A stretch of 64,000 nt of DNA from IMG/VR virus record IMGVR_UViG_3300044634_002329, positions 1-64,000 of that record. One strand, 5' to 3'. The notes below the pieces were generated by a model. It was not told where the DNA came from, made no database searches, and worked only from the letters and a program-made list of their open reading frames with translations. This document shows positions 14,555 to 42,378 of the stretch, one piece after another (within the stretch, counting starts at the first letter, position 1; the number at the start of each line of letters is the position of its first letter). A program made the position numbers and the translations under genes. This stretch comes from a virus.

Positions 14555-14668
14555 TAGTCAGGACAGGACTTGAACCTGTATCATTGTGTACATCAATAAT
14601 CTTCCGACCACATCATCCTTGCAAGATGATTGTCAATGAAGTGCGTCTACCAATTCCGCCACCTGACC
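14555..14668 (-). ncRNA. tRNA(Leu)-like RNA with expanded anticodon region
   Basis: GGTCAGG/CCTGACT acceptor, GCG-GAATTGGTAGA-CGC D-arm, ACAGG-TTCAAGT-CCTGT T-arm; ~60-nt insert replaces anticodon/variable arms. Confidence 0.75.
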
Positions 14669-15298: not shown

Positions 15299-16411
15299 TT
15301 AAATATAATTTTCAAGAATTTCATGTTGTTTATTAGGAATAAACAATCCTTTGGATTTATCAGAACATAACCATGATATAAAATAATCTTTGTGTTTTTG
15401 ATCTACTGATGTATTTCTAATAGAATACATTTGATCTAATACAACATGATTAATTCCAACTATTCTTACTCCTGCTGTAGCTCTGACACCTTCTCTATCA
15501 TATCTAAAGACATAATAGTTTTTGTTTCTTACACTTCTTTCATAGTTAGTATAAACACAGTGTTTCATTGTAGTACCTTCTTCAAACAACTCAATGTTAC
15601 TCTTGATAAGACTAATACCTTCAGGTGTTTCAATCTCAGGATAGTTATAATCAACAGGTTGTATAGACTTTATAGCCATACCCATTAATTCTCTAGTCCA
15701 TTCAGCATGAACTTCCTTCATTCTAGTCTCTGACCACTTAAGATTTACTTTTCTATCAAGCATTTCAGCTTGAGTAAATAAATCTTCAAGTTCACCATTG
15801 TACCTAGTAGTTCTTTGTTTTGCTACATGTTCTAGACCTTCATTAGGATTAGTAGCATATAATATATACTTTCTTAATCCTTTTGGTGAATTAAATTCAT
15901 CTACTGTGAATGTTTTGTAAAACAATTCAGGTGATATGTCTAGATTTTTGTAAGGACTAGTCTTAAGATATGCTTTTACATAATCTCTTGGATTAGTAAT
16001 CTTACCCTTAATCATATTCTGAAGCATTGTCTTGTTTAACAATGTCTTTAATGCATGTGATAAAGCATTAAACCAGTCTAATTTAAAGAACTGAATAATA
16101 TCAGGTAATATTGTACCTTCTAATATCTGAATAGAATTACCAAACCAAATCTTAATGGTTTTCTTTTCTTTGTCAAAGCTAACACCTGCTTTATTACTAT
16201 TTAAGTAGAAAAGCCTGTTGTTTTCAAATCTCGGGACTCTATTACTGTTACACCAATAGACATGTGTATCAGTTTCTTTTCTATTTGTAGTAGAAAAACC
16301 ATAGATTTCTCCCTTATAAAACAAATATCTCTGTACTTCTACAGGCATTGCTTTATATTCTTCCATTTTTGCTAAACTTTGTTCTCCGTGAATAATAGTT
16401 TTAATTTCCAT
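15299..16411 (-). CDS. PcfJ-like domain protein
   Basis: ELFEEGTTMKHCVYTNY...RATA...QMYSIRN. Confidence 0.75.
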   Translation of the reverse strand: MEIKTIIHGEQSLAKMEEYKAMPVEVQRYLFYKGEIYGFSTTNRKETDTHVYWCNSNRVPRFENNRLFYLNSNKAGVSFDKEKKTIKIWFGNSIQILEGTILPDIIQFFKLDWFNALSHALKTLLNKTMLQNMIKGKITNPRDYVKAYLKTSPYKNLDISPELFYKTFTVDEFNSPKGLRKYILYATNPNEGLEHVAKQRTTRYNGELEDLFTQAEMLDRKVNLKWSETRMKEVHAEWTRELMGMAIKSIQPVDYNYPEIETPEGISLIKSNIELFEEGTTMKHCVYTNYERSVRNKNYYVFRYDREGVRATAGVRIVGINHVVLDQMYSIRNTSVDQKHKDYFISWLCSDKSKGLFIPNKQHEILENYI

Positions 16412-16476
16412 TTTTAAGTATATTTTTTGAGTAAATAATAATAATTAGAGAGCCTTTCAACTCTCCAATTATATAG

Positions 16477-16752
16477 CTAATATCCTTCACTGCATTGCTG
16501 ACACATGTGAACTTCATCACACTGACATGTTAATGCCGGATCAATGCTGTGTAACATTGCCATATCAGCATGTTCACTAGCAATATCTCCATGTACCTGA
16601 AATTTAGGCTTAGAGACCGGCTTAACTTTAATACTCTTAACAATTAACTTAAGAGTATTTCTTAGATGAGTGACATCCATATCATCAATGGATATTCTTT
16701 GACCGTTTTTCATGGTCCAATAAACTGTTTCCATAATTATAATTTTAGACAT
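16477..16752 (-). CDS. hypothetical protein
   Basis: WTMKNG..I.IDDMD..HLRN motif; Cys tail. Confidence 0.65.
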   Translation of the reverse strand: MSKIIIMETVYWTMKNGQRISIDDMDVTHLRNTLKLIVKSIKVKPVSKPKFQVHGDIASEHADMAMLHSIDPALTCQCDEVHMCQQCSEGY

Positions 16753-16839
16753 TTATAAAACATTTTTAATAAAACAGTTGTAACCCGATATACCATTCCC
16801 ACCAGGGTACTCTATAGTATACTCAATGTTACAACTGTT

Positions 16840-16945
16840 AATACCCTCTGCACTCAATTATAACTATCTCCGTGGCTGTAAGACGTAGTGGAGTCATTCA
16901 TTACAATTGCTCACCCTTGGGAAGTGAGAATGGTGCATTACTACT
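16840..16945 (-). ncRNA. twister-like self-cleaving ribozyme (variant)
   Basis: UAA-UGCA-CC...CUCAC-UUCCCAAGG-GUGAG...UGCA-GA-GGG; CCC/GGG and CC/GG pseudoknots; 9-bp extra stem. Confidence 0.6.
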
Positions 16946-16953
16946 TTGCTTAG

Positions 16954-17058
16954 GCATCAACAACCCCCTCAAGTAGAACAGGACCGAAACTACTTGCATG
17001 TAAACTGAATAGAGTGCAAAGTTTGAAAAACTCCTCTTCAGTTATTTACAGTTGATGC
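16954..17058 (-). ncRNA. three-way-junction structured RNA
   Basis: GCATCAAC/GTTGATGC closing stem, long arm and CAAGTAG/CTACTTG arm. Confidence 0.45.
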
Positions 17059-17063
17059 ATTAT

Positions 17064-17149
17064 TGGTACTCTTACAGGGTTGCAACCCCTGACTCATATA
17101 GAATACTATGACCATCTAACTATGAGTTTATCCTGCTTGGATAAGAGTA
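17064..17149 (-). ncRNA. cloverleaf/tRNA-like RNA ending in CCA
   Basis: TACTCTTA/TAAGAGTA-CCA stem, TCC-AAGCA-GGA, ACTCATA/TATGAGT, CAGGG-GTTGCAA-CCCTG. Confidence 0.5.
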
Positions 17150-17562
17150 ATTGTGTACAGCATTATTGGTTAGCTGTACGGCTTGTGACTAGGATTACTG
17201 CCTAGCTCCTTAATTGTTACATAATGTAATCTGTTCCTATCATTAGTTCAAGGATACTGATTAGTATATAAAGAGGAATTCTTCATTATTTATGACCGGA
17301 CACTAATCCCGGATAATCTTACTGTACTCTTCCTATAAGTAATAGATAAGATAATAGTAATAGTAGGTAAGAGTGTATATATAGTAATAGGTATTTATAG
17401 CCATATATAAATGTATGTAGAGTGACATGACTAGATTATCTTAGTCTGTTAATGACCGAAGATATGGCAACTGTTTATCACCCACTCACTGACACTCAGA
17501 CACTTACATAATTAATATTAACTATTAACTTGCCACAATGTTGTCAAACTAGTACCTTATCT

Positions 17563-17590
17563 TGACCGATTCATGACCGATAAATGACCG
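17563..17590. repeat. three TGACCG direct repeats at 11-bp period
   Basis: Copies at 17563, 17574, 17585; more at 17293 and 17453. Confidence 0.7.
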
Positions 17591-17783
17591 TACAATAAGC
17601 ATTATTACTATTCTTTTACTATTAAAGTTATAAAAATTTAAGCCGAGACGTAGTCTCCATAGGTATTTTTATAAAAGACATATTTTATAACTACCTGATT
17701 ACTAATACCAAAGTCTACTTGTTACACACGGTGGAGACAACTAAATAAAAACAGGATACACATTTCTGTGTACCCTGTAATAT

Positions 17784-18215
17784 TTAAGCATCAAGCTTTT
17801 CAGACTCAAACTCAAGCTCTCCAAACATGTTGTCTGTAAGAGTCACACCTGTTGGTAGTGAACTTAGAGTAGTCCATGGAAGTCTTGCTGAACCGTCTTC
17901 ATTGAAGCTACGGCTGATTTGCCCCAAATAGGTTTCTCCAACCTCCATACCTTGGTCAATAGACTTTTGGAAAACAACTACATTCTCAATAGTATGAGAA
18001 TTACCTGAATTGTCTGTAAACACAACAGTTGCTAATCCATGCTCAATGGTTTTACCACTAGCATTTTGATAGCTAAAAGGCCCCTCAACTTTAGTTTTTG
18101 GGTCAATTCTTGTTTTAGACAATCTCTTAAGTGTACCTTTGATATTAGATACATAAGACACATTACCGTTTTCACTAACGGTTTCTACCCACTTTAAATC
18201 AACTTTTTTAGACAT
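17784..18215 (-). CDS. early protein, possible OB-fold ssDNA-binding protein
   Basis: Beta-rich with acidic C-terminus; own promoter and terminator. Confidence 0.6.
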   Translation of the reverse strand: MSKKVDLKWVETVSENGNVSYVSNIKGTLKRLSKTRIDPKTKVEGPFSYQNASGKTIEHGLATVVFTDNSGNSHTIENVVVFQKSIDQGMEVGETYLGQISRSFNEDGSARLPWTTLSSLPTGVTLTDNMFGELEFESEKLDA

Positions 18216-41361: not shown

Positions 41362-42378
41362 ATGAGTACATTCACAATGGTTGAAACCAATAAGGCAAGC
41401 AACCGTAAAACAGCAATAGCAATCCGTCCTTTCTTTGATAATGCAGCTTCAAACATGGGATTAGAACATTATGGTTTATCTTTATATGATGGAGTTAAAC
41501 ACCATGAACAACTAGCTTGTTTAGAAAATAATGGAGTAATCAGATATGTAACTGGTCTAAATGAATTTGCACCAGAAATTAAGTTGCTTAATAAAGAAGA
41601 CAGAGAAGCTAGAGTACATGAAATTAGAACAGCTATTATTGAATTAGAAAAAGAATTAGCTGCTAATGTAATTGATATTGATAGTCCAACATTTTGGAAT
41701 GAAGTAAAATTGTTAAAACCAGATAATGCAGAATTTTGGAATAGAATTAATATTGCATGTGGTAATGATCCAGTTTTCCTAGATCCAAAAGATCCTTATG
41801 ATAGAATTAAACTTTATGCTATTGAAGCAGGAGGTTTTGCTATTGTAGCAAAAAGTTTTGATGATGCTAGATCCAAAGCAGTTCCACCAAAGTTTTACTT
41901 AGACAAAGAAGAAGAAACTGTAATGGCTAGAACTGAATACAAAAAAATGAGAAATAAAGCATTGTCTGAGCTTCAAAAATTATTTGACAAAAACAGTACT
42001 AAGTTATTCTACATTGCAAAAGTTGTAGATATTAATAGTACACAATATAGAAAAGCTACACCATTAGATGTTATCTATGAAAATATGGATAGATATATTA
42101 ATGGTGATGGTGGAGAAAGCAATAAAGAAAGAGCAGCTAAATCTTTTATTGAAACATCCAATATGGATATGGAAACACTAAAAATTAAATCAATTGTACG
42201 TGATTCCGTTTTTTTTAAGTATATTATTAATAAGGCTGATGGATATATTTATCATGTAAAATCAAATGCATTACTTGGTAGAAATGTTTCAGATGTTGTT
42301 GAGTTTTTAAAGAATCCTTTAAATGAAGATGTTTTAAAAGACTTGAGCACAGCCACAGAAAAATATTGGAACTCTTAA
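41362..42378 (+). CDS. conserved crAss-like protein downstream of MCP
   Basis: RYVTGL; synteny. Confidence 0.7.
   Translation: MSTFTMVETNKASNRKTAIAIRPFFDNAASNMGLEHYGLSLYDGVKHHEQLACLENNGVIRYVTGLNEFAPEIKLLNKEDREARVHEIRTAIIELEKELAANVIDIDSPTFWNEVKLLKPDNAEFWNRINIACGNDPVFLDPKDPYDRIKLYAIEAGGFAIVAKSFDDARSKAVPPKFYLDKEEETVMARTEYKKMRNKALSELQKLFDKNSTKLFYIAKVVDINSTQYRKATPLDVIYENMDRYINGDGGESNKERAAKSFIETSNMDMETLKIKSIVRDSVFFKYIINKADGYIYHVKSNALLGRNVSDVVEFLKNPLNEDVLKDLSTATEKYWNS

Follow-up and report, generated by a model that had tools for sequence, protein, structure and literature searches.

The stretch that we analysed (the window) comprises positions 1 to 64,000 of the IMG/VR virus record IMGVR_UViG_3300044634_002329, a virus genome of 119,985 bases, with direct terminal repeats and about 30% G+C. 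Its genes include those for a terminase, a portal, and a major head protein, and the portal shares 22–32% identity with its counterparts in crAss-like phages, Cellulophaga phages, and a Leptolyngbya phage. In five DNA sequencing runs, all of them lake-water metagenomes, at least half of the sampled words from positions 16400–17900 were present, and two of the five may be where the window originated; none of the RNA runs contains this stretch, and a BLAST search of 16400–17900 against the GenBank phage collection gave no match. Judged by its sequence, the carrier of the element described here is a lake phage with a distantly crAss-like portal.

The element sits in an ORF-free gap of about 1 kb (16753–17783), within an arm of small minus-strand ORFs. 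Read along the minus strand, a terminator-like hairpin is followed by a promoter-like site and by the ORF-free block with the element, downstream of which lie a hairpin with a U-run, an ORF of 91 amino acids, and a further terminator-like hairpin. The features of the locus are the following.

17778–17751, minus strand: terminator-like hairpin
17711–17682, minus strand: promoter-like site, ahead of the ORF-free block
16945–16941, minus strand: P1 5' strand AGUA (16945–16942) and the unpaired G16941, read from the sequence and weak in this copy
16940–16938, minus strand: U(-1), A1, and A2, with the predicted scissile bond U16940/A16939, from conservation and the twister L1 rule
16937–16933, minus strand: P2 5' strand UGCA (16937–16934) and C20 (16933), which forms a fifth pair with G16853, from covariation
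16932, minus strand: C21, sole candidate T2 partner (with G16916), 101 CG and 1 UG in 102 rows
16931–16929, minus strand: L2 5' strand AUU (AUU, AUAA, or ACAA in the family), from the alignment
16928–16910, minus strand: P4, CUCAC (16928–16924) with GUGAG (16914–16910), from covariation, closed by loop L4, UUCCCAAGG (16923–16915)
Within L4, minus strand: CCC (16921–16919), T1 5' strand; G16916, T2 partner; U16923 and G16915, a likely extra P4 pair
16909–16855, minus strand: P5, a 10-bp stem (16909–16900 with 16864–16855) around a 35-nt insert (16899–16865), from covariation
16854–16849, minus strand: A129 (16854; A in 101 of 102 rows), G130 (16853; covaries with C20), and P2 3' strand UGCA (16852–16849)
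16848–16844, minus strand: G135 (16848, where twister has its catalytic guanine), A136 (16847), and T1 3' strand GGG (16846–16844)
16843–16840, minus strand: P1 3' strand UAUU, from sequence and alignment
16838–16774, minus strand: stand-alone 11-bp hairpin with a U-run, context outside the candidate ribozyme
16752–16477, minus strand: first downstream ORF, 91 amino acids, which starts 81 nt past the end of the model match and has a weak match as its sole PHROG match
16472–16441, minus strand: terminator-like hairpin

From 16945 to 16840 the minus strand reads AGUAG-UAA-UGCA-CC-AUU-CUCAC-UUCCCAAGG-GUGAG-CAAUUGUAAU...GUUAUAAUUG-AG-UGCA-GA-GGG-UAUU (106 bases), which is letter for letter the string that an initial annotation, made from the sequence without database searches, had put forward as a twister-like ribozyme with a covaried pseudoknot. 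That annotation had called P1 weak, correctly for this copy: G16941–U16843 is the sole pair in the register of the family, and AGUA/UAUU yields four pairs after a one-base shift. Outside P1, the window copy agrees with the family consensus at every conserved position of the alignment, and its internal loop L1 places UAA opposite GAGGG. The nested stems are recovered in the minimum-free-energy fold (-23.4 kcal/mol, z = -0.35). Since 70 of 200 shuffled sequences fold equally well, thermodynamics is insufficient to reveal the element.

Standard models could miss this RNA, as the initial annotation had anticipated, and they do. The search with the Rfam twister models that it had suggested was run and returned no twister match at E ≤ 10: with Rfam 15, neither 1001 nt nor 136 nt around the element contained one, only weak chance matches being returned, and the type P1 model (RF03160, gathering score 67.2 bits) failed to match the 119,985-base genome anywhere at E ≤ 10. 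The same negative result was obtained at E ≤ 10 for two family members of 73 and 80 nt, which have a very short P5, and, at the gathering score, for 22 loci that bear members. In the window as a whole, the gathering score of Rfam 15 admits only an unrelated tRNA-like match elsewhere and no twister. A literature search, with supplements, subscription journals, and the alignments of Roth et al. 2014 outside its scope, turned up no paper on this variant; some members may have been listed earlier.

The element is one of a large family. The 19-base hairpin of P4 and its loop has exact matches in at least 120 IMG/VR stretches (pattern scan, phage contigs), and among the matches listed, the window copy counted in, 112 of 121 occurrences have a recognisable 3' half; the resemblance of the window element is far beyond chance. 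Members share the layout UAAUGCACC, a linker of 3–4 nt, CUCAC-UUCCCAAGG-GUGAG, CAGUUGUAAU, a variable insert, AUUACAACUG, and A-GUGCA-GA-GGG. We aligned 49 of 100 distinct copies, namely those of at most 140 nt with the exception of L001, L014, L054, and L105, and from this structure-annotated alignment A1 derived a covariance model, R1. Across the window and 99 of the at least 120 loci R1 gave 127 matches at E ≤ 1, among them second and third copies per locus that the 19-base pattern had not picked, and in 100 hand-picked sources out of 382 loci it gave 141 matches at E ≤ 0.001. On the genome of the window itself it finds one real copy (16834–16951), whose 81.9 bits fall in the lower half of the full-length matches; a second match (41830–41956, plus strand, 15.4 bits, E 0.12) lies inside an ORF and was taken as chance. 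The 141 matches at E ≤ 0.001, of which 129 are distinct, form alignment A2. We tallied its 102 complete rows and omitted 27 truncated or 5'-degenerate ones; because many rows are kin by descent, and A2 is enriched by design for loop variants, the counts out of 102 given here are not numbers of independent events.

Copies differ mainly in what P5 encloses, and their total length ranges from 73 to 289 nt. The insert of the window copy recurs identically in L119 and nearly so in a partial copy in L063, and the element is found with the same insert in differing flanks. Full elements are present on five of the six contigs from metagenome-assembled genomes that contain the 19-base hairpin, the sixth, a 4.4-Mb Acidobacteriaceae contig, having the hairpin alone. 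Another class of copies retains the loop, P5, and all of the 3' half (GAGUGCAGAGGG), with UUAAUCAGY in place of the 5' strands of P2 and P4 (L112:3177–3288, L161:470–618, L168:1628–1796, L174:11025–11148, L003:7439–7639, and others); these are either decayed copies or a split form. In one member (L001:1036–1160, plus strand), C21 and P4 are separated by an additional hairpin, where twister has its optional P3.

Covariation supports the helices. Among the 102 complete rows, the inner three pairs of P1 are formed in 84, 86, and 90, with at least six pair types each; the four pairs of P2 are each formed in 100–102, with double changes from C-G to U-A (9 rows) and from A-U to G-C (2 rows) at two covarying positions; all five pairs of P4 are formed in 101–102, with three to five pair types each; and the eight pairs of P5 that were tallied are formed in 94–102. 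The closing pair of P4 is variable (76 CG, 15 UA, 7 AU, 3 GC, and 1 UG), and G-U pairs are tolerated in the helices of the family. In the 129 distinct rows, P5 has changes on both sides in nine of ten pairs. The base of its stem is conserved in sequence beyond what a plain helix needs. Over the whole structure, 92.5% of cells in these rows are paired as compared with 77.6% in shuffles, and 26 of 31 pairs show changes on both sides; none of 500 shuffles was as good, and partners slid out of register give 28–46%. The initial annotation had named a lack of covariation among homologs as part of what would refute it; covariation was found for P1, P2, P4, P5, and the pseudoknot T1.

The evidence for T1 is independent of the fit of the alignment, because T1 was left out of model R1. 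It was obtained by scanning IMG/VR for loop variants with patterns in which the loop side and the start of P5 were the sole fixed parts. The pair 33–139 is CG in 100 of the 102 rows, GC in one, and UA in one; 34–138 is CG in 73 and AU in 29; and 35–137 is CG in 79, AU in 19, and UA in one, with three mismatches. Loop UUCACAAGG goes with GAGUG on the 3' side, A34 being accompanied by U138 in 29 of 29 cases, and loop UUCCAAAGG goes with GAUGG, A35 being accompanied by U137 in 19 of 21 (all but L363 and L381). Single compensated cases are U35–A137 (L368), G33–C139 (L278), and U33–A139 (L006:7446–7607), and L034 has an uncompensated C35–A137 mismatch. At least five distinct compensated changes stand against three uncompensated ones, and this covariation supports a three-pair T1 between L4 and the 3' strand of L1.

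The second contact, T2, is where the family departs from the initial annotation, according to which the GC/GC pseudoknot of twister was replaced by a covaried CC/GG pseudoknot of two pairs (16933–16932 with 16916–16915). This part of the proposal does not survive comparison with the homologs, in which C20 covaries with G130 and G39 changes to A while C20 stays. Position 20 (16933) and position 130 (16853, just 5' of the P2 3' strand) are C-G in 69, U-A in 31, and U-G in two of the 102 rows, and the switch is seen in all three T1 subgroups. A scan of metagenomes for a last loop base other than G returned 26 stretches; after alignment to the model these gave 15 distinct complete members with A39 (12 with C20/G130, two with C20/U130, and one with U20/A130), and one further member has C39. 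Since C20 is retained in 14 of the 15 A39 members, position 39 does not track position 20. The other proposed pair, C21–G38 (16932–16916), is CG in 101 rows and UG in one. An IMG/VR scan for bases other than C at position 21 in the family context found a single variant (U), 48 stretches scanned for a base other than G at loop position 38 included no family member, and a pattern scan for a base other than U at position 31 gave no stretch; being invariant, C21, U31, and G38 provide no covariation test. The extra U that the annotation had noticed in the loop is U31 (16923), present in 102 of 102 rows and fit to form a U-G or U-A pair with position 39. We infer that T2 is reduced to C21–G38, and that P2 and P4 would each gain one pair (C20–G130 and U31–R39). 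A base triple of G39 with the C20–G130 pair is conceivable as an alternative.

The residues around the predicted cut site are nearly invariant. All 102 rows have A at both A1 and A2, 99 have G at position 135, and 101 have A at position 136; U31, U32, A36, and A37 do not vary. Immediately before the cut (n-1) stands U in 99 rows, C in two, and A in one, and the last loop base is G or A. According to the portion of a review available to us (PMC5408937), the scissile bond of twister lies between a less conserved U and a highly conserved A, P2 has four pairs, and P3 is expendable; T1 consists of three Watson-Crick pairs and an A-A pair, with a conserved U and A in L4; in T2 the conserved GC of L2 pairs with two bulged bases of L4; and the closing pair of P4 is an essentially invariant G-C. 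The same portion reports a suggestion that an altered P2 length may disturb the active site. In the part available of a mutational study (PMC11662667), the twisters examined withstand flaws in P1, P2, and P4 and accept any n-1 base, are intolerant of changes at A1 or A2, and become less active when the catalytic G is changed, and work cited there found P1 dispensable. The family, as aligned, fits both descriptions with the exception of T2: it has the L1 residues, T1, the four-pair P2, and P1 (weak in the window copy), and it lacks a two-pair T2 and a gathering score in Rfam.

Among known systems, the closest in the sources as far as they were available is twister type P1 (RF03160; Roth et al. 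2014, as given in PMC5408937; e.g., O. sativa Osa-1-4). It shares with the family P1, a loop of N-AA opposite GA-NNN, a 4-bp P2, a P4 with a U-NNN-A-A-G loop, a three-pair T1, a single C-G contact in the place of T2, stems that are optional at P3 and P5, and a predicted cut between N and A. In contrast to type P1, the family is without the second T2 pair, the two bases concerned pairing locally (C20–G130 and U31–R39), always has P5 with its inserts, has a variable P4 closing pair, and earns no Rfam score. Relative to the U-NNN-AAGC loop of twister, it keeps U32, A36, A37, and G38 but has the extra U31 and ends in G or A. Twister types P3 and P5 (RF03154 and RF02684, accessions as given in the part of a preprint available) share the core with extra junction stems; they are circular permutations opened in P3 or P5, whereas the family has its ends in P1 and a closed P5. 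Twister-sister (RF02681), which had no match when the window was scanned with cmscan, resembles the family loosely in its loop and in an A 3' of the cut site; in the available portion of PMC5408937 it comes with no pseudoknot evidence and cuts on the other strand, whereas T1 of the family is supported by covariation. The T-variants of Schistosoma mansoni twister (PMC8501958, as far as available) were likewise missed by standard searches and are active when P1 is relaxed, whatever the n-1 base; what sets them apart is P1 and how many A residues stand at the cut site, not T2 or P5, and they are eukaryotic and linked to a retrotransposon.

Members are found in the sense orientation among genes. 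Element and flanking ORFs are co-oriented in 98 of 101 cases, and of 95 elements, 31 have the start of an ATG-initiated ORF of at least 40 amino acids no more than 60 nt downstream and 55 no more than 150 nt downstream, the distances clustering at 15–30 nt (figures taken without a control set). DNA homologous to the 91-residue ORF of the window lies downstream of members on several other contigs (e.g., L026:5108–5204 and L043:12116–12214), and in L026 it begins at the 3' end of the element. The layout of the window fits a predicted cut between upstream noncoding RNAs and the downstream mRNA, as the initial annotation had supposed.

Further features occur in the window and on family-bearing contigs. 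The stand-alone hairpin at 16774–16838 has the stem sequence of P5 (ACAGUUGUAAC / GUUACAACUGU) around a different, 43-nt insert, is followed by UUUAUU, and was not called by the terminator scan; lone P5-like stems also adjoin elements in L022 and L023, and such hairpins cannot be counted cleanly, given that their stem reads the same on either strand. At 17123–17271 (minus strand) there is a noncoding block of about 140 nt, 77–83% identical over at least 110 nt to L055, L083, L026, L018, and L091 and with shorter, closer matches in at least six further loci; it probably represents a further conserved RNA of phages. A motif of about 60 nt (17682–17751, minus strand) heads the ORF-free block, overlaps the promoter-like site, and is 74–93% identical in at least 13 loci. 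Rfam tRNA matches spanning 111–158 nt occur in the window (14555–14668, minus strand, 43.3 bits) and in L035 (10332–10489) and L015 (11695–11805), and ARAGORN called no tRNA anywhere in the window; by their sequences these appear to be tRNA-shaped RNAs with a long insert, recurring in related contigs. The idea that the element processes tRNA-like flanks was set aside: in 60 of the at least 120 loci of the first set, ARAGORN found tRNAs in 14, none adjoining the element and the nearest seen about 450 nt away (L052). It also called tmRNA genes with tag peptides at L008:8424–8818 and L048:887–1274.

Two of the 22 loci scanned with Rfam contain hatchet ribozymes (RF02678; L003:5635–5767, plus strand, 78.1 bits, and L014:46–208, plus strand, 81.1 bits), each about 0.9–1 kb upstream of the twister-type element and on the same strand. 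Hatchet shares these phage contigs but is unrelated in fold and sequence, and according to the accessible part of a preprint, known hatchets reside largely in Crassvirales genomes.

Given the twister architecture of the family, self-cleavage at U16940/A16939 is the best reading, and we consider it likely that the element is a self-cleaving twister-type ribozyme that cuts before A16939, between U16940 and A16939. By its fold and key bases the family is an uncatalogued, phage-borne variant of twister type P1, with catalysis predicted. Against this reading weigh the missing second T2 pair, the variable closing pair of P4, the fifth pair of P2 in view of the suggestion about P2 length, the nearly absent P1 of the window copy, its ordinary fold energy, and the negative Rfam results. 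The initial description as a twister-like ribozyme holds in its architecture, in a covaried T1, and in its escape from Rfam, and has to be given up for the two-pair CC/GG contact.

A structured RNA folded like twister, with two pseudoknots, but devoid of self-cleavage, serving instead as a protein or ligand binder or as a stabiliser of a 5' UTR, would account for the non-canonical T2, the failure of all Rfam twister models, and a P5 stem base more conserved in sequence than a plain helix needs. We regard this as unlikely, given that A1, G135, and the residues next to them hardly vary in a family whose helices drift, that n-1 varies as it does in active twisters, and that hatchets lie nearby in two of 22 loci. 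It is somewhat less probable still that the family is catalytic and the window copy poor or dead. That copy has an almost missing P1 (one G-U pair, or four weak pairs in the shifted register) and its score is in the lower half of the full-length matches, but every other conserved position is that of the consensus; moreover, the tolerance of tested twisters toward P1 imperfections and the reported dispensability of P1 (PMC11662667, in the part available), as well as the activity of the S. mansoni T-variants, which were found by relaxing the P1 constraint (PMC8501958, likewise in part), speak against this reading.

The near-palindromic arms of P5, which also occur alone at 16774–16838, and the recurrence of the same element and insert in different flanks could suggest an inverted-repeat mobile element or a recombination site acting as DNA and not as RNA. 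Compensatory changes in T1 between segments that are neither adjacent nor palindromic, the tolerance of G-U pairs, and the strand bias shared with genes in 98 of 101 cases make this very improbable. A chance likeness to the twister consensus, which the ordinary fold energy and the absence of an Rfam match might have brought to mind, is refuted by hundreds of conserved, covarying copies and has next to no probability left.

For the self-cleaving twister-type ribozyme, we infer catalysis, the cut site, the geometry of a one-pair T2, and the biological role from the aligned sequences as follows. The element would be transcribed with the minus-strand gene arm and would fold into P1, an internal loop of U/AA opposite GA-GGG, P2, and a three-way junction with P4 and the long P5. 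The CCC of the P4 loop would pair with the GGG of the internal loop (T1) and G16916 with C16932 (the one-pair T2), and together these contacts would bring A16939 and G16848 together, so that the chain is cut between U16940 and A16939. The upstream product would end in a 2',3'-cyclic phosphate, and the downstream product would start with a 5'-OH and carry nearly the whole folded ribozyme ahead of the 91-residue gene. Its role may be the processing of an early transcript without a host RNase and the provision of a structured 5'-OH end on the mRNA.

The role of self-cleaving ribozymes in bacteria and phages is still largely unknown, as stated in the accessible part of PMC6765202. Tentatively, and with more doubt than belief, we hypothesize that the family is a distinct subclass of twister with a one-contact T2, one additional pair each in P2 and P4, and an obligatory P5 whose interchangeable structured inserts are functional cargo, and that in lake crAss-like phages it serves, sometimes beside hatchets, as a place where transcripts are cut independently of the host and gene-sized messages receive a folded leader with a 5'-OH. 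The family consists of hundreds of natural variants, intergenic, on the sense strand, and often just before a start codon, and thereby amounts to a collection of naturally occurring mutants of the twister fold. From it one would learn that T2 can shrink to a single pair and that much of the phage ribozyme repertoire escapes catalogue models, and it supplies defined sites at which to seek 5'-OH ends in lake metatranscriptomes.
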